This document shows positions 5,628 to 20,524 of a stretch of DNA of 64,000 bases, piece by piece. A program made the position numbers and the translations under genes. Source of the stretch: Struthio camelus (taxonomy: Eukaryota); contig NC_090973.1 of NCBI RefSeq assembly GCF_040807025.1, forward strand, positions 853,853 through 917,852, in the 5' to 3' direction. The notes beneath the pieces are model-generated. The model was given only the letters and a program-made list of their open reading frames with translations, searched no databases and was not told the DNA's origin. Positions within the stretch are counted from its first letter, which is position 1; every line of letters starts with the position of its first letter.

Positions 5628-6029
5628 GCGTCGCCTCCGCTACATTCGCGGCCCCCCCCACCCCCCCCGATCCGTCTCCCGTCCCCCCCCTTCCCCACCC
5701 CCGGGGACCCCCCCCCAAAAAAAAAAAATCCCAGAGGGGTCCCCAAAAACCCGGGGATTCCCCCCAAACCTGCGGGGGGAGGGGGGTGTCCCCAAACTCC
5801 TGGGGTCCCTCCAAACCCCCTCCCCAAAACCGAGTGGGTTCCCCCCCCAACCAGGACCCCCTCCTTGGCCCTCAAGGGGTCCCCGATGGGGCGTCCCCAA
5901 GGTCCCCCCCCCACCTCCGTGTCCTCCTCTTCTCCAAGGGGTCCCCAACATCCCTAGGGGGTCTCCAAAGGGGTCTCACCACCTCCCCAAGGTCCTCCGG
6001 AGGGGGCCTGGTGGGCCCCAAAGGGCTCC

Positions 6030-6960
6030 CCGATGTCACTATGGGGGTCCCCAAGGTCTCCGTGGGGGTCCCCCACCTCCACGTCCTCACCAGCTTCCCC
6101 TAAGAGGTCCCCAACATCCCTAGGGGGTCTCCAAAGGGGTCTCACCACCTCCCCAAGGTCCTCCGGAGGGGGCCTGGTGGGCCCCAAAGGGCTCCCCGAT
6201 GTCACTATGGGGGTCCCCAAGGTCCCCGTGGGGGTCCCCCACCTCCACGTCCTCACCAGCTTCCCCTAAGAGGTCCCCAAGGCCCATAGGGGGTCTCCAA
6301 AGGGGGTCTCACCACCTCCCCAAGGTCCTCCGGAGGGGGCCTGGTGGGCCCCAAAGGGCTCCCCGATGTCACTATGGGGGTCCCCAAGGTCCCCGTGGGG
6401 GTCCCCCACCTCCACGTCCTCACCAGCTTCCCCTAAGAGGTCCCCAAGGCCCATAGGGGGTCTCCAAAGGGGTCTCACCACCTCCCCAAGGTCCTCCGGA
6501 GGGGGCCTGGTGGGCCCCAAAGGGCTCCCCGATGTCACTATGGGGGTCCCCAAGGTCTCCGTGGGGGTCCCCCACCTCCACGTCCTCACCAGCTTCCCCT
6601 AAGAGGTCCCCAACATCCCTAGGGGGTCTCCAAAGGGGTCTCACCACCTCCCCAAGGTCCTCCGGAGGGGGCCTGGTGGGCCCCAAAGGGCTCCCCGATG
6701 TCACTATGGGGGTCCCCAAGGTCCCCGTGGGGGTCCCCCACCTCCACGTCCTCACTAGCTTCCCCTAAGAGGTCCCCAAGGCCCATAGGGGGTCTCCAAA
6801 GGGGTCTCACCACCTCCCCAAGGTCCTCCAGGGGGTCCCCAAGGTCACTCTGGGAGTCCTCAAGGTCCCCATGGCGGTCCCCCACCTCCATGTCCCTGTC
6901 TTCTTCCTCTAAGGGGTCCCCAACATCCACGAGGGGTCCCCAAGGTCCATAGGGCATCTC
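6030..6960. repeat. 166-167-bp satellite, about 5.5 monomers
   Basis: The ORF track repeats an identical peptide at 6033, 6199, 6366, 6532 and 6698. Lies in the ARMC5 3' flank. Confidence 0.9.
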
Positions 6961-7264
6961 CAAACGGCTCCCATCACCTCCCCAAAGTCTTCCAGGGGGT
7001 CTCCAAAGTCTCTATGGGGGGTTCCCCCAGGCCCCCAGAGGGAGCCCCCACCACCACGTCCTCATTTCCTTTCTCTAAGGCGTCCCCCACATCCATGGGG
7101 GTCCCCAAGGTCCACGGGGGGGGGGTTCTTCAAAGGGGTCCTGCCACGTCACCAAGGTACCCCAAAGTGTCCTCAAAGGTGCTCCCCCCAGCTCGCTATG
7201 GGGCTCCCCAACGCCCTTGCGGGGCTCCCCAAGGTCTTCACGGGGCGGGGGGTCCCCGAGGTCT

Positions 7265-9148
7265 TTATGGGGGTCCCCCCACCTCCATGTCCTCGTCTGC
7301 TTCCTCTAAGGGGTCCCCAACATCCCCGGGGATGTCCTCGAAGTCGTCCTCCCCCTCCCCGAGCTTCTCCGGGGGGGCCCTGAGGTCCTCCAGAGGGTCC
7401 CTGAGCTCCTCCAGAGGGTCTCTGAGGTCCTCCACAGGGTCCCCAAGGTCCTCCAGAGGGTCCCCAAGCTCCTCCACAGGGTCCCCGAGGTCCTCCAGAA
7501 GGTCCCCGAGGTCCTCCACGGGGGGTTCCCCAGGGAGCCGCAACAGCGGGTCCCCCCCGTCCAAGGGCTCCCCCATATCGAGGTGGGGCCGGAGGTCTCG
7601 GGGGGCCACGGCGGCCAGCAGAGCCCGGGCCAACCGGTTGGGACACCGAACGGTGCGAGCCACCCGGGCCAGACGGGGGGCCACGCTTTGGGGTGGCCCC
7701 TCTAGAAGCTCCCGGGCCGCCCGGGCGGCCAAGGGACCGCAAGCCCAACGCTCGGCCAAAGCCCAGAGGGTGCCGGGGGACCCGGAGACGCTGGCGGCCA
7801 TGACGGCTTCCAAACCCGGCACCAGATAACGGCGGGCCAAGGCGATGGCGGCGCCCGCCGTGGCGGGGGGGACGGGCGAGCGGAGTCGGGGGCACCCGGC
7901 GGCCGGCCGGCACCCGTGGACGTAATGGAGGAGGACGAGGAGGGGGCGGCGGGGGGCGCAGCGCAGGGCCACGGCGCCCTGGCGGGCTTCGGCGAAGGCG
8001 CCCCCCAACATGGCGCCCAACACCGGCGACCCCCGGGTCAAGGCCACCCGGGATGCCGGCAAGCCCGGCTCGGCCCCGTCGGGGAGCAGCAGCAGGTCGT
8101 GGGGCGCCCGGGCGTAGGGGCAGGAGGACCTCGGGGACGTTGGAGGACACGGGGACGCTTGGGGACGGGGGCTGGAGGACCTTGGGGATGGGGGAGGACG
8201 GGGGCTGGAGGACCTCGGGGACGTTGGAGGACTAGAGGATGGGTGGGGACGGGGGCTGGAGGACCTCGGGGACGTTGGAGGACTAGAGGATGGGTGGGGA
8301 CGGGGGCTGGAGGACTTTGGAGATGGTTGGAGATGGGAGTTGGAAGACTTTGGGGGCGTTGGAGGACAAGAGGACACTTGGGGATGGGGGTTGGAGGACC
8401 CTGGGGACACCGGGGGACAAGGGGACAGCTGGGGACGGGGGCTGGAGGACCTTGGGGACGCTGGGGGAGAAGACGATGGTTGCGGACGAGGGCTGGAGGA
8501 CCTTGGGGACGCTGGGGGAGATGACGATGGTCGGGGATGGAGGTCGGAGGACCTTGGGGATGGTTGGCGATGGGGGTTGGAGGACCGCGGGGACGCTGGG
8601 GGAGATGACGATGGTTGGGGATGGAGGTCGGAGGACCTTGGGGATGGTTGGCGATGGCGGTTGGAGGACCGCGGGGACGCTGGAGGACAAGAAGACACTT
8701 GGGGATGGGGGCTGGAGGACCTTGAGGACACTTGGGGACAAGGGGACAGTTGGGGAGCAGGCTCGGAGGACCTCGGAGGACAAGGGGACACTTGAGGATT
8801 GGGGGCCGCTTGGGGACAGGGGGACACGCGGGGACACTTGGGGGGCCTGGGGGACACGTGGGGAAGGAGATGGGGCCGCTTGGGGGCCCTTGGGGCCGCT
8901 TGGGCGCAGGGGGACGGGGACACGGGGGACAGCAGGGGCGGGGGGCGCAGGGCCACCGGGGACGATGTCACCGCGCGTCCCCACGGCTCCTCGGCGGCCC
9001 CGGGTGCGTGGGCGGGTCCCAGCGCGTCCCCAACGTCACCGCGTGCCCCAAGGGCGTCCTCGTGTCCCCACGGCTCCTCGGTGGCCTCGCGTCCACATCC
9101 GGCCTCGTGTCCCCACGGCTCCTCGGTGGCTTCGTCCTGGCCACGCGC
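7265..9148 (-). CDS. ARMC5: ARMC5 candidate last exon (stop TGA at 7265-7267). It contains the BTB-like C-terminal homology (APHDLLLLPDGAEPGLPASRVALTRGSPVLGAMLGGAFAEARQGAVALRCAPRRPLLVLLHYVHGCRPAAGC...RALLAAVAPRDL), preceded by an in-frame ~280-aa Pro/Ser-rich repeat and followed by an acidic (EDLGDPL)n tail
   Basis: The 3' part from about 8130 down aligns to human [68 protein letters not shown]...EALLAVVMGIEL. The proposed acceptor gactccccccag at 9151-9149 is the most upstream phase-0 candidate. The true acceptor could instead lie anywhere from 9148 down to about 8150. The open frame runs ~100 aa past the human C-terminus through a 21-bp repeat. Confidence 0.4.
   Translation of the reverse strand, partial: ARGQDEATEEPWGHEAGCGREATEEPWGHEDALGARGDVGDALGPAHAPGAAEEPWGRAVTSSPVALRPPPLLSPVSPSPCAQAAPRAPKRPHLLPHVSPRPPKCPRVSPCPQAAPNPQVSPCPPRSSEPAPQLSPCPQVSSRSSSPHPQVSSCPPASPRSSNRHRQPSPRSSDLHPQPSSSPPASPRSSNPHRQPSPRSSDLHPRPSSSPPASPRSSSPRPQPSSSPPASPRSSSPRPQLSPCPPVSPGSSNPHPQVSSCPPTPPKSSNSHLQPSPKSSSPRPHPSSSPPTSPRSSSPRPHPSSSPPTSPRSSSPRPPPSPRSSSPRPQASPCPPTSPRSSCPYARAPHDLLLLPDGAEPGLPASRVALTRGSPVLGAMLGGAFAEARQGAVALRCAPRRPLLVLLHYVHGCRPAAGCPRLRSPVPPATAGAAIALARRYLVPGLEAVMAASVSGSPGTLWALAERWACGPLAARAARELLEGPPQSVAPRLARVARTVRCPNRLARALLAAVAPRDLRPHLDMGEPLDGGDPLLRLPGEPPVEDLGDLLEDLGDPVEELGDPLEDLGDPVEDLRDPLEELRDPLEDLRAPPEKLGEGEDDFEDIPGDVGDPLEEADEDMEVGGPP
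7380..7530. repeat. 21-bp repeat (GAGGTCCTCCAGAGGGTCCCT)n, in-frame within the ARMC5 terminal ORF (EDLGDPL)n
   Basis: About 7 units. Confidence 0.75.
8150..8800. repeat. ~60-bp repeat (GGACGGGGGCTGGAGGACCTTGGGGACG...), encoding a P/S-rich stretch on the minus strand
   Basis: Periodic ORF track peptides (GGWRTLGTLGD...). Confidence 0.75.
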
Positions 9149-9199
9149 CTGGGGGGAGTCATGGTGGCCCCGGGGGGGGTTGGTGAGGCCCCCGGGGCC

Positions 9200-11640
9200 A
9201 CCGATGTCCCCGTGTCCCTGACCCATGTCCCAGCATCTCCGTCCCATGTCCCAGTCCCATGTCCCCATCCCACGTCCCAGTGTCCCCATCCCACGTCCCA
9301 GTAGCTCCATCCCACGTCCCAGCTCCACGTCCCAGTGTCCCCATCCCACGTCCCAGTAGCTCCATCCCACGTCCCAGCTCCGCATCCCAGTGTCTCCATC
9401 CCGTGTCCCAGCTCCACGTCCCAGTATCTCCATCCCACGTCCCAGCTCCACGTCCCAGTGTCCCTGTCCCATGTCCCAGCTCCACGTCCCACTGTCCCCA
9501 TCCCACGTCCCAGTATCTCCATCCCATGCCCCAGCTTCACGTCCCAGTGTCCCTGTCCCACGTCCCAGCTCCATGTCCCACTGTCCCCATCCCACGTCCC
9601 AGTATCTCCATCCCATGCCCCAGCTCCACGTCCCAGTGTCTCCATCCCACGTCCCAGCTCCACATCCCAGTGTCCCCATCCCATGTCCCCGTCCCGTGTC
9701 CCAGTGTCCCCATCCCACGTCCCATTATCTCCATCCCACGTCCCAGCTCCACGTCCCAGTGTCCCCATCCCACGTCCCAGTATCTCCATCCCATGCCCCA
9801 GCTTCACGTCCCAGTGTCCCTGTCCCACGTCCCAGCTCCACGTCCCACTGTTCCCATCCCACGTCCCACTGTTCCCATCCCACGTCCCAGTATCTCCGTC
9901 CCATGCCCCATCCCACGTCCCCGTGTCCCCATCCCACGTCCCCGTCCCGTGTCCCAGTGTCTCCATCCCATGCCCCAGCTCCACGTCCCAGTGTCCCCGT
10001 CCCATGTCCCAGCTCCACGTCCCAGTGTCTCCATCCCACGTCCACGTCCCAGTGTCTCCATCCCATGTCCCATGTCCCCGTCCCATGACCCCAGCTCACG
10101 TCCCAGTATCTCCATCCCATGACCCCAGCTCATGTCCCAGTGTCTCCATCCCATGTCCCCATCCCGTGTCCCAGCTCCATGTCCCAGTGTCTCCATCCCA
10201 TGTCCCATGTCCCCGTCCCATGACCCAGCTCACGTCCCAGTGTCTCCATCCCATGACCCCGTCCCATGACCCCAGCTCCACGTCCCAGTGTCTCCATCCC
10301 ATGACCCCGTCCCATGACCCATGTCCCCGTCCCATGACCCCAGCTCCACGTCCCAGTGTCTCCATCCCATGACCCCGTCCCATGACCCCAGCTCACGTCC
10401 CAGTGTCTCCATCCCATGTCCCCATCCTGTGTCCCAGCTCCACGTCCCAGTGTCCCCATCCCATGACCCCGTCCCATGTCCCATGTCCCCGTCCCATGAC
10501 CCCAGCTCCACGTCCCAGTGTCTCCATCCCATGACCCCGTCCCATGACCCATGTCCCCGTCCCATGACCCCAGCTCACGTCCCAGTGTCTCCATCCCATG
10601 ACCCCGTCCCATGACCCCAGCTCACGTCCCAGTGTCTCCATCCCATGACCCCGTCCCATGTCCCATGACCCCGTCCCATGACCCCAGCTCACGTCCCAGT
10701 GTCTCCATCCCATGACCCCGTCCCATGACCCCATCTCACGTCCCAGTGTCTCCATCCCATGACCCCGTCCCATGACCCCGTCCCATGACCCCAGCTCCAC
10801 GTCCCAGTGTCTCCATCCCATGACCCCGTCCCATGTCCCATGTCCCCGTCCCATGACCCCAGCTCCACGTCCCAGTGTCTCCATCCCATGACCCCATCCC
10901 ATGACCCCAGCTCACGTCCCAGTGTCTCCATCCCATGACCCCATCCCATGTCCCCGTCCCATGACCCCAGCTCCACGTCCCAGTGTCTCCATCCCATGAC
11001 CCCATCCCATGTCCCCGTCCCATGACCCCAGCTCCACGTCCCAGTGTCTCCATCCCATGACCCCGTCCCATGACCCATGTCCCCGTCCCATGACCCCAGC
11101 TCACGTCCCAGTGTCTCCATCCCATGTCCCCGTCCCATGACCCCAGCTCCACGTCCCAGTGTCTCCATCCCATGACCCCATCCCGTGTCCCATGTCCCCG
11201 TCCCATGACCCCAGCTCACGTCCCAGTGTCTCCATCCCATGTCCCCGTCCCATGACCCCAGCTCCACGTCCCAGTGTCTCCATCCCATGACCCCATCCCG
11301 TGTCCCATGTCCCCGTCCCATGACCCCATCTCACGTCCCAGTGTCTCCATCCCATGTCCCCGTCCCATGACCCCAGCTCCACGTCCCAGTGTCTCCATCC
11401 CATGACCCCGTCCCGTGTCCCATGTCCCCGTCCCATGACCCCAGCTCCACGTCCCAGTGTCTCCATCCCATGACCCCGTCCCATGACCCCAGCTCACGTC
11501 CCAGTGTCTCCATCCCACGTCCCCATCCTGTGTCCCAGCTCCACGTCCCAGTGTCTCCATCCCGTGTCCCAACGCCATGTCCCAGTGTCTCCATCCCGTG
11601 TCCCAACGCCACGTCCCAGCGTCCCCGTCCCGTGTCCCCG
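9200..11640. repeat. 2.4-kb array of the 21-bp family CCCACGTCCCAGTGTCTCCAT / CCATGACCCCGTC
   Basis: ARMC5 intron 6. Confidence 0.85.
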
Positions 11641-11652
11641 CGCGGGGGTTAC

Positions 11653-11839
11653 CTGGGGTGGCGGCGGGGTGCCGGTGCCGGGTGGGGGCGCCCGCAGCAG
11701 GCCCAGGGCGTCGGCGGCGTAGAAGGCGAAGGCCGGCGGGGGCTGGAAGGGCGACGCGGGACCCCGGGCCACCGCCGCCGCCAGCACGGCCGCCGCGCCG
11801 CCCCCGGCCCACAGCAGGCCCTGCGTCGCCTCGCCGGCC
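11653..11839 (-). CDS. ARMC5: ARMC5 exon 6: (R)AGEATQGLLWAGGGAAAVLAAAVARGPASPFQPPPAFAFYAADALGLLRAPPPGTGTPPPPQ
   Basis: Acceptor gcgtgcgcag, donor CAG|GTAACC. Matches human [48 protein letters not shown]. Phases are consistent. Confidence 0.7.
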
Positions 11840-12099
11840 CTGCGCACGCCAACCGCGCGCTAAGGGCACGCCGTGGACACGCCAACCGCGCGCGGAGCGC
11901 GTGCCGACCGCCCGCCAACCACGCGCCGTGGACACGCCAACCACACGCCATGGACACGCCAACCACACGCCATGGACACGCCAACCACACGCCATGGACA
12001 CGCTATGGACACACCAACCACACGCTATGGACACGCCAACCACACGCCAACCACGCGCTATGGACACGCCAACCACACGCTATGGACACGCCAACCACA

Positions 12100-12560
12100 C
12101 GTGAGGGACATAGGGGCTGGGGGGGCCCTATAGGGTCTCTATAGGGCAGTCTCAGACCCCCCCCCCCTCGAACCACCCCTGGGGGGAATCTCTGGGGAGG
12201 GGTCTATAGGGGACCTATAGGACTGGTGATGGGAGATCTATAGGGGAAGCTATAAGGGACCTAAAGTGAAATCTATAGGGCGTGCTATAGGCAGCCCATG
12301 GAGTCTCTATAGCAGTGGGACTCTGGTGGGGGGAGTCTCTGGCCTGGGGGGTGTCTATAGGGCCTGTCTATAGGGGCCGTCTATAGGGGCTCACCTGGCG
12401 AACAGGGGCAGGGCGGTGTCACGTGCTGGGGGGCCAGCGGGTGTCCGTGGGGGGGCGTCTATGGCCCGGGGGGGGCCCAAACGGGTGTCTATAGGGGCTG
12501 TCTATAGGGGCCGTCTATAGGGGCTCACCTGGCGAGCAGGGGCAGGGCGGTGGCGCAGGC
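12100..12560. repeat. Cluster of at least 15 TCTATAGGGG motifs (palindromic core CCCTATAGGG), including an ~80-bp local duplication (12350-12418 and 12486-12552)
   Basis: TATA-containing motifs stand out in a sequence that is about 75% GC. Confidence 0.75.
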
Positions 12561-12661
12561 CAGGCGGGCCGGGGGGGCCCCGCAGCGCAGCGTGTGGGTC
12601 AGGAGCCCCACGCCGAAGGGCGACGCCGCCACCGCCGCCAGGTTGCGCAGCAGCCCCTCGC
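12529..12661 (-). CDS. ARMC5: ARMC5 exon 5: (G)EGLLRNLAAVAASPFGVGLLTHTLRCGAPPARLACATALPLLA+ag
   Basis: Acceptor cccctatag, donor AG|GTGAGC. Matches human [46 protein letters not shown]. Confidence 0.75.
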
Positions 12662-12789
12662 CTATAGGGGCCGAAACGGGGGGGAAAAGGGTAAATCGGG
12701 GGGTGTCGGGGCAGCCGGGAGCCTATATCGCCCCCCCACCCCACCCCTTTCCCCTGCCCGCAGCTCGCCGGGGGGGGCCTCAAAAGCCC

Positions 12790-14340
12790 CCCCCCAGCAC
12801 CCCTCGTTTTCCCCCTATATCTCCCCCCCCTTCCCAGGACCCCTATAGCCCCCCAAAGCCCCCCCAGACTCCCCTAAATTCCCCCCTCCCCCAGAGCAGC
12901 TCTAGGACCCCCAAATCCCCCCCCATATGGCCCCCCTATGGCACCTCGAAGTCCCCTCAGACCCCCCCTCAGGGGCCACTTATAGCCCCCCCCCAACCCC
13001 CCCAAGGGACCCCTACGGCCCCCCCAGGACCCCCAACTCCCCCCCCGGACCCCTATGGCCCTACAAAAGCCCCTCATATCCCCCCTAGACCCCTAAATCC
13101 CCCCCCAAATTCCCCCCAGGACCCCCCGAATCCCAGTCAGGGACCCCCAGGACCCCTATATCCCCCCAAGGGACCCCTATGGCCCCCCCCAAGACCCCCA
13201 AATCACCCTCGAAAGCCCCGAAGGGCCCCCAAAGCCCCCCCAAAAGCACTTCCAGGAACCCCAAATCCCCCCAAAACACCCAAGGGTCCCCCAAATCCCC
13301 CCCAAAGCACCTCCAGGACCCCCCAAAACACCCAATGGCCCCCCCAAATCCCTCCTATATCCCCCCCAACACCTCCAGGACCCCTCAAAGCACCCAAGGG
13401 TCCCCCAAATCCCCCCTCAAATCCCCCCAGCACCCCCAAATCCCCCTCCAACACCTCTAGGACTCCCCAAAACGCCCAAGGGCCCCCCAAATCCCCCCCA
13501 GGACCCCAAAATCCCCCCTAAATCCCCTCCCAGCACCTCCAGGATCCCTCAAAGCACCCAAGGGTCCCCCAAATTCTCCCTGAATCCCCCCCAGGACCCC
13601 CAAATCCCCCCTAAATCCCCTCCCAGCACCTCCAGGATCCCCCAAAACACCCAAGGGTCCCCCAAATCCTCCCTGAATCCCCTCCAGGACCCCCAAATCC
13701 CCCCTAAATCCCCCCAACACCTCCAGGACCCCCCAAATCCCCCCAGGACCCCCAAATCCCCCCTAAATCCCCTCCCAGCACCTCCAGGATCCCTCAAAGC
13801 ACCCAAGGGTCCCCCAAATCCCCCCTCAAATCCCCCCAGCACCCCCAAATCCCCCTCCAACACCTCCAGGACTCCCCAAAACGCCCAATGGCCCCCCCAA
13901 ATCCTCCCCAGGACCCCCAAATACCTCCTATATCCCCCCCAACACCTCCAGGACCCCTCAAAGCACCCAAGGGTCCCCCAAATCCCCCCTCAAATCCCCC
14001 CAGGACCCCCAAATCCCCCCTAAATCCCCTCCCAGCACCTCCAGGACCCCCCAAAACACCCAAGGGTCCCCCAAATCCTCCCTGAATCCCCCCCCAGGAC
14101 CCCCAAATCCCCCCTAAATCCCCCCAACACCTCCAGGACCCCCCAAATCCCCCCCAGGACCCCCAAATCCCCCCTAAATCCTCCCCAACACCTCCAGGAC
14201 CCTCCAAAACACCCAAGGGTCCCCCACATCCTCCCTGAATCCCCCTCCCAGGACCCCCAAATCCCCCCCCCAACACCTCCAGGACCCCCTAAAACACCCA
14301 ACAGCCCCCCCCCCCCAAATCCCCTCCTTAAAGCCACACG
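12790..14340. repeat. C/A-rich repeat (CCCCAAATCCCCCCTAAATCCCCTCCCAGCACCTCCAGGA...)
   Basis: ARMC5 intron 4. Confidence 0.8.
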
Positions 14341-14384
14341 CACACACCCCCCCCAACCCCAGGGCCAAAATCCCGCAGCCTCAC

Positions 14385-14896
14385 CCCACTCCTTGAGTCG
14401 CGCCTGGCGGGGATGGGGGCGAGCGGCGGCGGGAGACGGCGCGGCCGGTCGCCTGGGCCCGACGACGGGTCGGGAGAGCTCCTCGGCGCGGGCCGGGGGG
14501 AGGCCGAGCAGGAGCCAGGAGCGGAGCAAGGAGGGGACGTAGGCGCGGAGCAGGGCGCCCAAACAAGCCGGGTGACAAGTGAGGCGTTGCAACACCCGTA
14601 AGGCTCGGGGAGCCGGCGCCGGTACGCCGACTAAATAACGGAGGAGACCGGTAACGGCCGGCGCCGTGGCCAGCGCCCGGCTGGGTTCGTCGGCGGCCGC
14701 CAAGCGACCCAAGAGGAGCAAAGCGGGCGTTTCGGGTCCCCGCGGGTCCCCGTCGCCCGGCGCTCGCGGTAGGGCCAGGGCGCCCAGCGGCGACACCCGG
14801 CGGCGGCGGCGACGGGGCGGCGAGGGGCGGCTCGGGGTGCTGCCGGCCGGCGGGGACGGCGGCGGCGACGACGTGGCTTCGGAGAGCAGCCAGGAC
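14385..14896 (-). CDS. ARMC5: ARMC5 exon 4: (K)SWLLSEATSSPPP...GDPRGPETPALLLLGRLAAADEPSRALATAPAVTGLLRYLVGVPAPAPRALRVLQRLTCHPACLGALLRAYVPSLLRSWLLLG...RQARLKEW+g
   Basis: Strong acceptor tctcctctctcccggcag, donor G|GTGAGG. Matches human SWLISEGYA...EEPWGREGPALLLLSRF...[53 protein letters not shown]...HSRHRE. Confidence 0.7.
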
Positions 14897-14989
14897 CTGC
14901 CGGGAGAGAGGAGAAGGGGTGAGGGTATCAGGTGTGGGTGCTGGTTTGGGGAAGGGGGTGGGGTGGGGGGGTAGGGGGACGGTTCCCCG

Positions 14990-15900
14990 GGGCGCAGTTT
15001 GGTGAAGGGTGGTGCTGGGGAGGCCGAGGGTGACAGCAGGGACCCACCTGGACCTCCACCTTGCCCTGAGGGACACCAAGAGTGACCCCAGGGGTCCTTC
15101 TAGACCCCCACCTTCACCTGAGGAACCTCAACGGTAGCACCAGGGACCACCTGGACCTCCACCTTGCCCTGAGGGACACCAAGAGTGACCCCAGGGATCC
15201 TTCTAGACCCCCACCTTCACCTGAGGAACCTCAAGGCTGACACCAGGGACCCACCTGGACCTCCACCTTGCCCTGAGGGACACCAAGAGTGACCCCAGGG
15301 GTCCTTCTAGATCCCCACCTTCACCTGAGGAACCTCAAGGCTGACACCAGGGACCCACCCGGACCTCCACTTGCCCTGAGGGACACCAAGAGTGACCCCA
15401 GGGGTCCTTCTAGACCCCCACCTTCACCTGAGGAACCTCAAGGCTGACACCAGGGACCCACCCGGACCTCCACTTGCCCTGAGGGACACCAAGAGTGACC
15501 CCAGGGGTCCTTCTAGACCCCCACCTTCACCTGAGGAACCTCAAGGCTGACACCAGGGACCCACCCGGACCTCCACTTGCCCTGAGGGACACCAAGAGTG
15601 ACCCCAGGGGTCCTTCTAGACCCCCACCTCCACCTGAGGAACCTCAAGGCTGACACCAGGGACCCACCCGGACCTCCACTTGCCCTGAGGGACACCAAGA
15701 GTGACCCCAGGGGTCCTTCTAGACCCCCACCTTCACCTGAGGAACCTCAAGGCTGACACCAGGGACCCACCCGGACCTCCACTTGCCCTGAGGGACACCA
15801 AGAGTGACCCCAGGGGTCCTTCTAGACCCCCACCTTCACCTGAGGAACCTCAAGGCTGACACCAGGGACCCACCCGGACCTCCACTTGCCCTGAGGGACA
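14990..15900. repeat. ~105-120-bp tandem repeat (CCACCTTCACCTGAGGAACCTCAAGGCTGACACCAGGGACCCACC...), about 8 copies
   Basis: ARMC5 intron 3. Confidence 0.85.
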
Positions 15901-16300
15901 CCAAGAGTGACCCCAGGGACCCCAAGTGTGACACCAGGGACCCCCCAAACACCAATCTTCACCCCAGGAACCCCAAGGGAGACACCAGGGATCCTCCAAA
16001 CACCAACACTCAACCCAGAGACCCCAAGGGAGACACCAGAGATCCCCCAAACACCAACCCTCACCCCGGGGACCCCAAGGGAGACACCAGGGATCCTCCA
16101 AACACCAACCTGCAACTCAGGGACCCCAAAGAAGACACCAGGGACCCCCCAAACACCAACCCTCACCCCAGGGACCCCAAGGGAGACACCAGGGATCCCC
16201 CAAACACCAACCTTCACCCCGGGGACCCCAAGGGAGACACCAGAGATCCTCCAAACACCAACCCTCAGCCCGGGGACCCCAAGGGAGACCCCCCACCACC
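15900..16300. repeat. ~60-bp repeat (GGGACCCCAAGGGAGACACCAGGGATCCCCCAAACACCAACCCTCACCCCA), about 7 copies
   Basis: ARMC5 intron 3, adjacent to the exon 3 donor. Confidence 0.85.
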
Positions 16301-16313
16301 ACCACCGCCTCAC

Positions 16314-17151
16314 TTGAGTCCCCGCAAACTGCCGGCGGCCGCTCCGGAACCGGGCGACCGAGGCGGCTGTTGAGACGGTAGGTCGAAAGAAGCGGCTTCT
16401 TCGTCTTCGTCGTCCTCGGCGCCTTCGCCTCCTCCGTCCTCCTCCTCGCCGGCGCCGGGCCGCCTCCTGCCTTCCTCTTCGTCGGCCCGCGCCCGCAACA
16501 CGTCGACGAGCAACGGGACGAGACCGTCGGCCTCGAGGGCTTCCAGGGCCGGCCGGTCGTAGGCGAAAGCGGCCAAAGCCAAGACGACGCGAGGTCGCCA
16601 AGGCCGAGCCCTCGGGTCGGCCAAGAGGGCGAGCAAGAGGGGCAGGCCGCCGGCGGCCCGCACCCGGGCTCGATTGACGGCCTCGCGGCACAGGAGGCAG
16701 AGGGCGCGAGCCAAGGCGGCGGGCACGCCGGGCGGCGCCGCCAGCGCCCTCCTCACCTCGGCGGCCACGGCTTCGACGGCGCCCGCCGCCCCCAGGGCCG
16801 GCCGTAGGGTGGCTCGGGCGCAAGCGGCGGCGATGGCGCCCAAGGCGGCTTGCCGTCGCTCGCCTTTGCCGCCGGCGGCCAAGGCGGTCAAAGCCGGGGC
16901 GGCGGCGGCCAGCTCGGCGGCGCTCAGGTCGCCCAGGAGGAGGCGGAGGGCCCGCGTGAGGCCGGCGCAGGTCGGGTGGGTGGGCGGCAACGAAGCCAAG
17001 CGGGCGGTCAAAGCTCGGGCGGCTCCGGCTCGCGTCAAGGCGCTCCGGGCGTTGGGATGACCGGCCAGGATGCGGAGGGCTCGGGCGGCGCTGTGCAGGC
17101 ACGAGCCGGCGGCGCACGAGGCCGTCAGGGCCGCCAAGGCCGGCACGGCGC
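16314..17151 (-). CDS. ARMC5: ARMC5 exon 3 (armadillo-repeat core, 279 codons): (G)AVPALAALTASC...ALCLLCREAVNRARVRAAGGLPLLLALLADPRARPWRPRVVLALAAFAYD...EEAASFDLPSQQPPRSPGSGAAAGSLRGL+aa
   Basis: Acceptor ccccaccag. Colinear with human [29 protein letters not shown]...[54 protein letters not shown]...ASWDFPEE...GSFRSLRS. Donor AA|GTGAGG. Confidence 0.75.
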
Positions 17152-17219
17152 CTGGTGGGGACCGAGCGCGGGGTGGTTCGTTAGCGGCCTTCTTTTGGGG
17201 GGGGGGGGAAGGAGAGAGA

Positions 17220-19170
17220 TCGGGGGGTGTCTCCTTCGCTCGCCCGGGGACGCCTGGTGGGGACGTGCCAGGGCACCCAGGAGACCCTCTGGGGACGTTT
17301 GGGACATCCTGAGGTAGCCAGAAGAACCTCTGGGGACGTTGGGGACGTGCCAGGGCACCCAGGAGACCCTCTGGGGACGTTGGGGACATCCTGAGGTAGC
17401 CAGAAGAACCTCTGGGGACGTTGGGGACGTGCCAGGGCACCCAGGAGACCCTCTGGGGACGTTGGGGACATCCCGAGGTAGCCAGGAGACCCTCTGGAGA
17501 TGTTGGGGACGTGCCAGGGCACCCAGGAGACCCTCTGGGGACGTTGGGGACTTCCTGAGGTAGCCAGGAGACCCTCTGGAGACGTTGGGGACGTGCCAGG
17601 GCACCCAGAAGACCCTCTGGGGACGTTGGGGACATCCCGAGGTAGCCAGGAGACCCTCTGGAGATGTTGGGGGCGTGCCAGGGCACCCAGGAGACCCTTT
17701 GGGGACGTTGGGGACATCCTGAAGTAGCCAGAAGACCCTCTGGAGACGTTGGGGACATCCTGAGGTAGCCAGGAGACCCTCTGGAGACATTGGGGACGTG
17801 CCAGGGCACCCAGGAGACCCTCTGGGGATGTTGGGGACATCCCGAGGTAGCCAGGAGACCCTCTGGAGATGTTGGGGACATCCCGAGGTAGCCAGGAGAC
17901 CCTCTGGAGATGTTGGGGACATGCCAGGGCACCCAGGAGACCCTCTGGGGATGTTGGGGACTTCCTGAGGTAGCCAGGAGACCCTCTGGAAACGTTGGGG
18001 ACGTGCCAGGGCACCCAGGAGACCCTCTGGGGACGTTGGGGACGTGCCAGGGACACCACAGGGCACCCAGGAGACCCTCTGGGGACGTTGGGGACGTGCC
18101 AGGGCCCCCAGGAGACCCTCTGGGGACGTTGGGGACGTGCCAGGGACACCACAGGGCCCCCAGGAGACCCTCTGGGGACGTTGGGGACATCCCGAGGTAG
18201 CCAGGAGACCCTCTGGAGATGTTGGGGACGTGCCAGGGCACCCAGAAGACTCTCTGGGGATGTTGGGGACATCCCAGGGACACCTTGTGACACCCAAGGT
18301 ACCCCAGGGGCACCCAGGGGACACCAGAGCACCCCATCCGAGCCGGGGACACCCAAGGGACCCCAACAGGGGACACCGGGGCACCCCATGACACCCAAGG
18401 GACCCCCATAGGGGACACCAGAGCACCCCGTCCCACCCGGGGACACCCAAGGGACCCCCATAGGGAACACCAGAGCACCCCATCCCACCCAGGGGCACCC
18501 AAGGGACCCCAACAGGGGACACCGGGGCACCCCATCCCACCCAGGGGCACCCAAGGGACCCCAACAGGGGACACCAGAGCACCTCGTCCCACCCGAGGGC
18601 ACCCAAGGGACCCCAACAGGGGACACCAGAGCACCCCATCCCACCCGGGGACACCCAAGGGACCCCAACAGGGGACACCAGAGCACCCCATCCCACCCAG
18701 GGACACCCAAGGGACCCCCATAGGGAACACCAGAGCACCCCATCCCACCCAGGGGCACCCAAGGGACCCCAACAGGGGACACCAGGGCACCCCATCCCAC
18801 CCGGGGACACCCAAGGGACCCCCATAGGGGACACCAGAGCACCCCATCCCACCCGGGAGCACCCAGGAGACCCCCATAGGGGACACCGGGGCACCCCGTC
18901 CCACCCAGGGGCACCCAGGAGACCCCCATAGGGGACACCGGGGCACCCCATGACACCCAAGGGACCCCCATAGGGGACACCAGAGCACCCTGTCCCACCC
19001 GGGGGCACCCGAGGGACCCCCATAGGGGACACCAGGGCACCCCATCCCACCCGGGGGCACCCAAGGGACCCCCATAGGGGACACCAGAGCACCCCATGAC
19101 ACCCAAGGGACCCCCATAGGGGACACCGGAGCACCCCGTCCCACCCGGGAGCACCCGAGGGACCCCCGGA
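17220..19170. repeat. Two arrays: an ~80-bp unit (17220-18290) and a ~52-60-bp unit (18290-19170, CCCATCCCACCCGGGGACACCCAAGGGACCCC...)
   Basis: ARMC5 intron 2. Confidence 0.8.
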
Positions 19171-19194
19171 GGGGCACCCCGGGGTGCCGCTCAC

Positions 19195-19302
19195 CGGCCT
19201 CGAGGACGGCCTGGGCGCCGTCGGGCTCCAGCGCCAGGTTGGCCAGGGCGCGCGCCACCCGGTTCTGCACGCTCTCCGCCGCCCCCGGGGTCAGCAGGGT
19301 CA
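19195..19302 (-). CDS. ARMC5: ARMC5 exon 2: (V)TLLTPGAAESVQNRVARALANLALEPDGAQAVLEA+g
   Basis: Acceptor ccccgcag, donor G|GTGAGC. Matches human [37 protein letters not shown]. Phase is continuous with exon 1. Confidence 0.75.
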
Positions 19303-19379
19303 CTGCGGGGTCCGAGGGCGAAGGTCACGGCCGGCGCGGGCACCCCGGGGTGCCTCCCCCCCCCCCCCGCCGCCGCCCA

Positions 19380-20220
19380 GAGCGCCCTATGGGGCTGGGC
19401 TGAACCATTCCCCCCTCTGGGGGGGGGAGGGGAGCACCCATAGCACCCAATGGGGTTGGGCTGAACCATTCCCCCCCCCCGAATAGGAATGGTGCGGTCC
19501 GACCCCCCCCAATGGGGGAATGGTGCAGTCTGACCCCCCTCCCCGAATGGGGGGGTCGGACCGCACCATTCCCATTCGGGGGGGGGGGGGGGTCGGACCG
19601 CACCATTCCCCCATTCTGGGGGGGGGGGGGGGGTCGGACCGCACCATTCCCCCATTCTGGGGGGGGGCCGGACCGCACCATTCCCCCATTGGGGGGGGGT
19701 CGGACCGCACCATTGCCCCCATTCTGGGGGGGGTCGGACCGCACCATTGCCCCCATTCTGGGGGGGGTCGGACCGCACCATTCCCCCTATGGGGGGGGGG
19801 GCCAGACCGCACCATTCCCCTATTGGGGAGGGTCAGACCGCACCATTCCCCCATTCTGGGGGGGGGGGGTCGGACCGCACCATTCCCCCATTGGGGGGGG
19901 GGGTCGGACCGCACCATTCCCCCATTCTGGGGGGGGGGGTCGGACCGCACCATTCCCCCATTCTGGGGGGGGGGTCGGACCGCACCATTCCCCCATTCTG
20001 GGGGGGGGGTCGGACCGCACCATTCCCCCATTCTGGGGGGGGGGGTCGGACCGCACCATTCCCCCATTCTGGGGGGGGGTCAGACCGCACCATTCCCCCT
20101 ATGGGGGGGGGGTCAGACCACACCATTCCCCCATTGGGGGGGGGTCAGACCGCACCATTCCCCCATTCTGGGGGGGGGGGTCGGACCGCACCATTCCCAC
20201 TCGGGGAAGGGGGACACCCC
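19380..20220. repeat. ~40-bp repeat G(8-13)-TCGGACCGCACCATTCCCCCATTCT, about 20 copies
   Basis: ARMC5 intron 1. Long G-runs lie on the plus strand. Confidence 0.88.
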
Positions 20221-20247
20221 CCCCCCAAAAACCCCGCAGCCACTCAC

Positions 20248-20524
20248 CGAGGCGAGGCACCCCGCCGAGGCGGCGGGCCTGGCGGCGGCAACCGGCCTCG
20301 GTGCAGCAGTTGGCGAGGACGCTGAGGGCCAAGTCGAGGGTGCGCCGGGGCCTGTCGGGCCCCAGCAGCTCCAGCAGCGGGCCCAGACCCCCGCGCTCAC
20401 GGAACCGAGCGGCGCCGCCCGCCTTCCGCGTGTGCCGCAACCGCAGCGCCAGCAGCGCCCGGCCCAGGCCCGGCTCCGCCGCCGCCCGCACCGCCTCCAC
20501 GCACCACCCCAGCGGCTCCGCCAT
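20248..20524 (-). CDS. ARMC5: ARMC5 coding exon 1 (ATG at 20524-20522): [92 protein letters not shown]+g
   Basis: Aligns to the human ARMC5 N-terminus ([35 protein letters not shown]...[28 protein letters not shown]). Donor GTGAGTG at 20247-20241. Confidence 0.8.

Follow-up and report, generated by a model that had tools for sequence, protein, structure and literature searches.

The analysed window is a stretch of 64,000 nt from Struthio camelus (contig NC_090973.1, positions 853,853 to 917,852, numbered here 1–64000), and this report concerns its ARMC5 gene, in particular a proposed terminal coding exon at 7265..9148 in which a Pro/Ser-rich minisatellite and an acidic repeat tail would flank the BTB domain. 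All ARMC5 features lie on the minus strand. The gene is the avian ARMC5 orthologue, as had been proposed in a first-pass annotation made from the sequence alone. The Pfam family ARM_ARMC5 (PF24768) matched exon 3 at 17152-16313 (E = 3.2e-43, 148.6 bits, cutoff 79.9), and a C-terminal profile (HMMER) retrieved annotated ARMC5 proteins of Rhea pennata, MacQueen's bustard, tinkerbird, night parrot, killdeer, tuatara, Pogona, frog and shark; the fold predicted for the C-terminal region was that of a BTB domain. The ARMC5 proteins of bustard, Rhea and Pogona mapped by tblastn to seven collinear exons in the window, each as an unbroken match. Human ARMC5 has 935 amino acids (aa), carries its BTB domain in the C-terminal part and is a Cullin 3 (CUL3) adaptor (PMC11796173, PMC9226510); mammalian ARMC5 binds CUL3 and serves as substrate adaptor, for example for RPB1 (PMC9226510). 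The GC content of the window is 65–78%, and tandem arrays with a Tandem Repeats Finder (TRF) score of at least 100 make up 79% of it (about 58 distinct arrays, periods 9–443 bp). The ARMC5 exons stand as small non-repeat islands amid these arrays.

The comparison material consisted of bird proteins and loci and of a non-avian set. The bird proteins were Rhea pennata XP_062456873.1 (partial, 1271 aa), tinkerbird XP_063997311.1 and bustard KAM6032644.1, with the corresponding loci L009 (Rhea, JAQOLV010000133.1), L011 (tinkerbird) and L012 (bustard). Two sets of neognath contigs were added: the Logan contigs L001–L006 of a killdeer-like species, and the JGI contig L007, in which exon 6 lies outside the contig; a metagenome scan added no further contig to this set. 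The non-avian set (n = 4) comprised ARMC5 of Pogona (XP_020662972.3), tuatara (A0A8D0GMY1), frog (XP_068100247.1) and shark (XP_067883692.1). Identity of the window to these sequences in the BTB region was 84% for Rhea, 72–75% for three neognath sequences, 64% for tinkerbird and 57% for night parrot, which points to a palaeognath as the probable source of the locus.

On the minus strand, an open frame of 1884 nt (627 codons and a TAA stop at 7267-7265) runs from 9148, in agreement with the 1.9-kb open frame described earlier around a BTB-like C-terminal homology (APHDLLLL...HYVHGCRPAAGC), which is present. Read 5' to 3', the frame holds five segments before the stop. An acidic segment of 60 aa (8969..9148; three EEPWG(H/R) copies, net charge -10) is followed by a Pro-rich, non-array segment of 63 aa (8780..8968) with the anchors PPPLLSPVSPSP, APKRPHLL and RPPKCP. 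The Pro/Ser minisatellite, proposed as coding, contributes 219 aa (8123..8779), after which the BTB plus helical (3-box/BACK-like) domain runs from CPYARAPHDLLLL to ...RPHLDM (7574..8122; assigned by fold prediction and by the substitution ratios given below). The acidic C-terminal tail has 102 aa (7268..7573), with 39 Asp and Glu residues, a net charge of -34 and eight heptads. All three anchors of the Pro-rich segment are kept in frame in L001 and L007, and APKRPHLL appears to be a relic of the vertebrate KRPRL motif. The three arrays inside the terminal exon all have a period divisible by 3, compared with 18 of 55 arrays elsewhere in the window.

Exon 6 (11653..11850, 5' end approximate, from bustard tblastn) encodes ...GLLWAGGGAAAVLAAAVARGPASPFQPPPAFAFYAADALGLLRAPPPGTGTPPPPQ and ends at 11653 with the donor CAG/GTAACC in phase 0 (slashes mark splice borders). 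Intron 6 (9149..11652, 2504 bp) is nearly all minisatellite and G-rich on the sense strand. Its TGGGAC-type units have periods of 34, 47, 89 and 115, which are not multiples of 3, with 9–16% indels, and 5–7 stops occur in each of the three sense frames. The acceptor, gactccccccag/GCG at 9160-9146, gives an exon start at 9148 in phase 0 with the BTB frame; hence both splice signals named in the first-pass annotation, at 11653 and 9148, are present and mutually in phase 0. The pyrimidine tract before this acceptor is the first one 3' of the G-rich intronic array (cctcaccaacccccccc...ctccccccag), and no other AG intervenes. Phase-0 AG sites that combine a pyrimidine tract with an open frame were found at 9148, 8836, 8761, 8428, 8347 and 8314 only. 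That the junction is used in Struthio camelus, and that the product is translated, we infer from these signals and from the comparisons that follow.

The junction has the same form in other birds. Exon 6 ends with the Gln codon CAG followed by GT in Rhea, L001 and tinkerbird as well, and an acceptor built of a pyrimidine run and CAG/G(C/T)G recurs in Rhea, L001, L007 and tinkerbird, to which ccccag/GCGCGT of the window conforms. In Rhea, CAG/GTGACT (exon 6 end at L009 11576) is paired with ctgtccccag/GCGTCA. L001 carries CAG/GTACGG at 662 and ctacag/GTGCAC at 906, which reproduces the killdeer RefSeq junction LQ/VHGDGD, L007 carries cccccag/GTGCAC after an array of 43-bp period, and the tinkerbird junction reads Q/VPG. 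Intron 6 varies about ten-fold in length, from 243 bp in L001 (663-905) through 514 bp in tinkerbird and 1965 bp in Rhea (L009 11577-13541) to the 2504 bp of the window; in Rhea it is filled by a 21/62/83-bp array. A related sequence, E(D/E)PWGHGD, which in neognaths lies just 3' of intron 6, is coding, and one repeat family seems to straddle the intron/exon border.

The array consists of ten 51-bp units (17 aa, SPRSSSPRPQPSSSPPA-like), four 33-bp units (11 aa, SPRSSNPHRQP-like) and a final 5-aa partial unit, SPRSS. The 14 whole units span 8779-8138, and each is exactly 51 or 33 nt long, without a frame-breaking indel; TRF reported periods of 51, 33, 84, 135 and 237 over the array. The repeat unit had initially been put at 60 bp, a figure that has to be replaced by these two unit lengths. 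The in-frame Pro/Ser-rich stretch of about 280 aa reported at the same time was recovered as 282 aa (exon aa 61-342) with 31.6% Pro and 29.1% Ser. It has a net charge of +28, 34 Ser-Pro (SP) sites and 14 SPRSS-like cores, and the unit consensus is SPRSS(S/N)P.PQ.S.(C/S)PP. Two known types of low-complexity sequence were considered and set aside. The stretch is not an Arg-Ser (RS) domain, with 12 RS dipeptides in 282 aa, one per unit, and no RS runs. Nor does it resemble the heptads (YSPTSPS) of the RNA polymerase II carboxy-terminal domain, as the units have 17 or 11 aa, no Tyr and the consensus SPRSSSPRPQPSSSPPA.

The same 17/11-aa unit family, SP(R/G/S)SSNP.PQ.SPCP.., is found in the Rhea RefSeq protein XP_062456873.1, in L007 and in L001–L006, and is therefore older than the split between the sampled palaeognath-like and neognath lineages. 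Unit lengths in the Rhea and L007 arrays are likewise divisible by 3, without frame-breaking indels. The unit count differs among species: 0 in bustard, 3–4 in L001, about 12 in L007, 14 in the window and 24 in Rhea. L001 and the three further contigs of its species (L002, L003 and L006) are equal in length. The best DNA match of the array is the orthologous Rhea array (74% identity over 639 bp). The idea that it belongs to a satellite family dispersed in the window was dropped, as there were only weak matches outside the locus.

In the acidic tail, the eight heptads are of the type (V/L)E(D/E)L(G/R)DP and derive from a 21-bp repeat at 7518-7356 (7.8 copies, 0% indels by TRF). A tail of about 100 acidic residues encoded by a 21-bp repeat had been predicted; the length and the acidity hold, while the repeat accounts for only about 54 of the approximately 100 residues. 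The tail ends in GDPLEE.DEDMEVGGPP, of which the conserved form is GDPL.E...D.EV.GP., and both the tail and the position of the stop are conserved in Rhea, bustard, killdeer, L001 and L007. GC content at the three codon positions of the tail (0.90/0.35/0.82) is a clear coding signature. The number of heptads is 8 in the window and about 22 in Rhea, and ranges from about 3 to 22 among the sampled birds. From the CxY motif to the C-terminus there are 193–198 aa in the non-avian proteins and 227–354 aa in birds, an excess of 32–159 aa; the tail would thus be an extension past the ancestral C-terminus.

Immediately 3' of the stop, TRF identified a satellite of 166/164-bp units on the same strand (5908..7114). 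Window positions 7248-7493, which include the last ~75 codons, are 70–79% identical to every unit of this satellite, and the units carry stops in all frames. In Rhea, a 165-bp array occupies the corresponding position 3' of the stop (L009 16103-17076). Based on the resemblance of these last codons to each downstream unit, the coding tail appears to be the proximal end of a hierarchical 21/166-bp satellite.

Between the two repeats, the region CPY...RPHL is predicted to fold as a BTB plus helical domain. An AlphaFold2 model built with 15 homologues had a predicted local distance difference test (pLDDT) score above 90 for residues 21–200, and about 50–58 for the linker stub and the whole tail, both of which are predicted to be disordered. 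The top Foldseek matches of the model were the BTB domains of SPOP, KBTBD2 and KLHL3 (best E = 5.7e-5, probability 1.00). The predicted fold superposes on BTB plus helical extension in the structures of SPOP, KLHL3 and KBTBD2 (PDB 4j8z, 4hxi, 8gq6). Sequence identity of these proteins to the ARMC5 region is, in contrast, 14–21%; ARMC5 binds substrate through ARM repeats and not through MATH or Kelch domains, and the flanks in the three structures have no repeat expansion, unlike those described here. A Pfam scan of the whole terminal-exon protein returned no family, and the BTB model had no match at E <= 1 on window 8122-7574; the same Pfam hidden Markov model does match the homologous region of Pogona ARMC5. 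A PDB sequence search gave only a marginal match to BTBD6 (E = 0.21). The avian ARMC5 BTB domain thus appears unusually diverged in sequence (Ala/Arg/Pro/Gly-rich).

The linker that precedes the BTB domain has 24–34 aa in shark, frog, tuatara and Pogona; the first-pass annotation had given about 30 aa for human. The bird values are 92 (bustard), 101 (tinkerbird), 283 (parrot), 325 (L001), 361 (window), 394 (Rhea) and, as an approximate figure, 414 (L007). Both the linker and the tail expansion are specific to birds among the sampled vertebrates. Non-avian ARMC5 shares with the window the ARM_ARMC5 domain, the order FYAxD...KRPRL...CxY...BTB and a BTB domain of the CUL3-adaptor kind; it differs in its linker of 24–34 aa against about 360, and in ending 193–198 aa past CxY without an acidic tail. 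In the Rhea protein, the likeness extends to the 17/11-aa SP(R/G)SSNP.PQVS.C.PP units, the EDLGDPL heptad tail ending in ...EDEDMEVEGPP, the form of the exon 6 donor, a G-rich minisatellite intron 6 and the 165-bp satellite after the stop. It differs in its 24 units against 14 and its ~22 heptads against 8, and the Rhea gene model differs further in that its terminal exon begins at the array, without the EEPWGH and KRP segments, and omits one 51-nt unit. In tinkerbird, the RefSeq model has a Pro/Ser-rich linker that is not built of array units. Net charges in the window are +28 for the 282-aa part, +19 for the whole linker and -32 to -34 for the tail, and in Rhea +28 and -62. Charge compensation between linker and tail was rejected as a general rule, as neognath linkers are net negative.

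The position of the array relative to conserved motifs speaks to its origin. The short linker of shark, tuatara and Pogona has the form KRPRL-(3-12 aa)-CxY. A relic of its first motif, KRP(R/H/L), is found 5' of the Pro/Ser-rich stretch in the window, L001 and tinkerbird, with CPY 3' of the stretch and all of it in a single frame; in the window and L001 the stretch between the two motifs is the unit array. Such an arrangement would be expected if a coding linker of the ancestor had expanded in frame. PPPLLSP and CPY are 274 codons apart in the window, 169 in L001 and 299 in L007, in frame in each case.

Indels and substitutions between species followed the proposed frame. Between L001 and L007, all six indels in the proposed coding sequence were multiples of 3 (3, 393, 90, 21, 9 and 15 bp), compared with 4 of 7 indels 3' of the stop that were not; in the acidic E(D/E)PWGH region, each of four indels was a multiple of 3. 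The ratio of nonsynonymous to synonymous differences per site (pN/pS, bootstrap intervals) for the array between the window and Rhea was 0.60 (0.47–0.77) in frame, and 1.35 and 1.40 off-frame. For the Pro/Ser linker of L001 and L007 the values were 0.65–0.72 in frame and 0.95–1.08 off-frame, and for the acidic EEPWGH-type segment 0.44 (0.28–0.73), with 0.96 and 1.37 in the other frames. The tail gave 0.24–0.35, the same level as the BTB control (0.17–0.30 in three species pairs). In comparison, the control region after the stop gave 0.77–0.99 for L001/L007 and 0.84–1.46 for window/Rhea, and every interval spanned 1. DNA alignments of the linker flanks between the window and neognaths showed a trend in the same direction, at 52–66% identity too unreliable to be given weight. 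The selection signal on the array appears weak, as expected for a disordered region.

Taken with the splice sites, the anchors and the bird gene models, these data agree with the initial proposal, in which the terminal exon encodes both the Pro/Ser minisatellite and the acidic tail in frame. The comparison with ARMC5 of other species, which had been suggested as a check, returned the same array and heptad tail in Rhea and an array in frame in two neognath contigs. In the product of the terminal exon, the BTB domain is thus very probably flanked by a Pro/Ser tandem repeat on its N-terminal side and by an acidic repeat tail on its C-terminal side. We consider it likely, with some room for doubt, that both repeats are translated, disordered and bird-specific flanks of the BTB domain within the exon 9148-7265. 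Expansion of the array would have taken place in the interval that separates the ancestral motifs KRPRL and CxY. Copy number (0–24 units, ~3–22 heptads) would change repeatedly through replication slippage or unequal exchange, in a region of which 79% is tandem arrays, and selection would purge frame-breaking variants, with weak constraint on the array (pN/pS ~0.6–0.7) and constraint near the BTB level on the tail (~0.25–0.35). Placed between the ARM region, which binds substrate, and the BTB dimer, the array could act as a flexible, basic spacer with its 34 SP sites likely phosphorylated, and the tail could be a conserved acidic disordered appendage.

Several observations weigh against this interpretation. 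The open frame is weak evidence of coding, because a second sense frame is likewise stop-free over the array (two of three sense frames open) in DNA of 67–77% GC. The ARMC5 gene models of the other birds are predictions that rest in part on open frames. The bootstrap intervals on pN/pS are optimistic as to independence, since repeat units are not strictly orthologous across species; within the array pN/pS is only 0.74, and for the unique Pro-rich part of L001 and L007 the confidence interval extends to 1.07. GC content at third codon positions (GC3) in the array is 0.63 (Rhea 0.58, L007 0.63), similar to the 0.65 of introns and lower than the 0.82–0.87 of the other exons. The Rhea model acceptor sits directly at the array, while the Rhea sequence upstream of it aligns with window DNA taken here as coding, and so the position of the acceptor relative to the array would differ across birds. 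Looked for in this and other species, transcript evidence of the junction did not turn up: a word-indexed protein search for spliced transcripts with the junction-spanning peptide returned no matches, two other searches of this type, swamped by low-complexity sequence, gave three and four, and an exact look-up of the window open frame in public assemblies had no match. In the bustard annotation, a single exon (L012 5919-7091) covers everything from the start of exon 6 to the stop; intron 6 and the Pro/Ser array are both missing, and the linker has 92 aa. The array is dispensable in that it is absent from bustard, in whose lineage it appears to have been lost or never to have expanded. An array in intron 3, at 15910-16289 directly after exon 3, has a 51-bp period, 7.5 copies and no indels, an indication that indel-free periods divisible by 3 occur in non-coding DNA of the window too.

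The strongest competing explanation is that the array lies partly or wholly outside the main mRNA, removed either by use of an inner acceptor (8836, 8761, 8428, 8347 or 8314) or as a second in-frame intron. The latter would pair a phase-2 donor, GAGCC/GTGGGG in the EEPWG segment, with a phase-2 acceptor, ccccgag/G at ~8131, and both candidates can be read in the window sequence. In either case the translated linker would fall well short of 360 aa, and its length might vary among isoforms. Several phase-0 (Y)nAG sites are available within the array, whose sense strand is rich in pyrimidines, and the night-parrot model has an intron within its Pro/Ser region. The Gnomon model of Rhea, besides placing its acceptor at the array, skips one 51-nt unit that is open in the genome (L009 14621-14671) and missing from the RefSeq protein; GT..AG borders can be assigned to the skipped piece. 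This skip is more likely an artefact of alignment evidence, arising from a copy-number difference, than a real intron. Inner splicing is also at odds with in-frame purifying selection, which extends over the whole Rhea-aligned array and the neognath acidic segment, and with the placement and conserved form of the acceptor at 9148. In L001 the ~27 nt upstream of CPY hold no AG, and in L007 the nearest AG, 21 nt upstream, is out of phase. By the textbook splice consensus, GAG/G is a poor acceptor and GCC/GTGGGG a weak donor, and even the nearest in-frame acceptor, 8314, would retain ~64 array-encoded residues. Removal of the array by inner splicing is in our judgement unlikely, though it deserves to be taken seriously.

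A more radical version would treat the array as purely intronic or non-coding and open by chance, with the acceptor just 5' of APHDLL near 8150. Open frames are common in a window of which 79% is tandem arrays, the GC3 of the array is intron-like, and the array in intron 3 shares its 51-bp period and lack of indels. An acceptor near 8150, the finding that the first-pass annotation had said would overturn it, was looked for: a scan of the window sequence found no phase-0 AG between 8314 and 8122 to pair with the phase-0 donor. A chance frame is also hard to reconcile with KRPRL-type and CxY motifs on either side of the array in one frame in the window, L001 and L007, with indels that are all multiples of 3, or with pN/pS below 1 in the proposed frame only. 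Moreover, the Rhea RefSeq model includes the array, and the tinkerbird model includes a Pro/Ser-rich linker, though one without array units. We regard a non-coding array as very unlikely. It is hardly credible that the gene here is a pseudogene in decay, or a product of misassembly on a repeat-rich microchromosome, with array and tail not expressed as protein: the extreme repeat density makes assembly hard and the Pfam BTB model misses the BTB of the window, but seven coding exons lie in order as unbroken tblastn matches, the BTB domain has a low pN/pS in three species pairs and a confidently predicted fold, and the same architecture is found independently in five other assemblies or contigs.

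The preferred interpretation, of two translated BTB flanks, can be carried further. Both flanks might be protein sequence that arose out of satellite DNA at the locus and that selection has retained since the common ancestor of the sampled palaeognaths and neognaths, the tail by C-terminal extension into the 21/166-bp satellite and the array as a multiply phosphorylated spacer tunable by copy number. As a whole this extended proposal is speculative and rather improbable. If it were true, the array spacer would alter the reach of CRL3-ARMC5 to its substrates (in mammals, RNA polymerase II), and species or individuals with other copy numbers would differ in ligase activity.

Coding minisatellites, or variable-number tandem repeats (VNTRs), occur in disordered regions of vertebrate proteins, such as the 54-bp repeats of PER3, the 48-bp repeats of DRD4 and the 60-bp repeats of MUC1. 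The ARMC5 array resembles these in having units of tens of bp, divisible by 3, that yield low-complexity, Ser/Pro-rich peptide repeats, and in copy number that shifts without loss of frame. In contrast to them, the documented variation is all between species, the array itself is old, and the surrounding DNA is mostly minisatellite too. It is, in this comparison, an ordinary coding minisatellite and not a new kind of element. Literature searches for ARMC5 in birds or for ARMC5 repeats found no paper; the feature is already present, undiscussed, in RefSeq predictions of other birds.

In mammals ARMC5 is a tumour-suppressor CUL3 adaptor that controls the turnover of RNA polymerase II, and the segment that joins its substrate-binding region to the BTB dimer governs its geometry. 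In birds this linker seems to have been stretched about ten-fold by a coding minisatellite, and a conserved acidic tail seems to have been added. The locus may serve as an example of repeat expansions that reach conserved proteins from the GC-rich, hyper-repetitive DNA of avian microchromosomes, the part played by selection being mainly that of a filter on frame. For the annotation of 'hidden' GC-rich bird genes, it suggests that models that avoid repeats are probably wrong.

The upstream coding exons of ARMC5 occupy 12528..20524, as located by tblastn with bustard, Rhea and Pogona ARMC5. Their limits are approximate, the exon 6 donor being the only splice site read directly among the seven exons: exon 1 at 20524-20249, exon 2 at 19309-19181, exon 3 at about 17152-16313 (tblastn and the Pfam ARM_ARMC5 match), exon 4 at 14898-14380 and exon 5 at 12719-12528. 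For the human gene, the exon boundaries found in the literature are c.475/476 and c.1370/1371. In tinkerbird, the model XP_063997311.1 contains a further repeat of ~230 aa within the ARM-domain exon (aa ~270-500, L011 2907-4361), rich in Ala, Pro, Ser and Leu and of LAPPS/GTLAPPS-like units. Other parts of avian ARMC5 may have absorbed coding repeats as well, or the tinkerbird model may wrongly keep repeat DNA.

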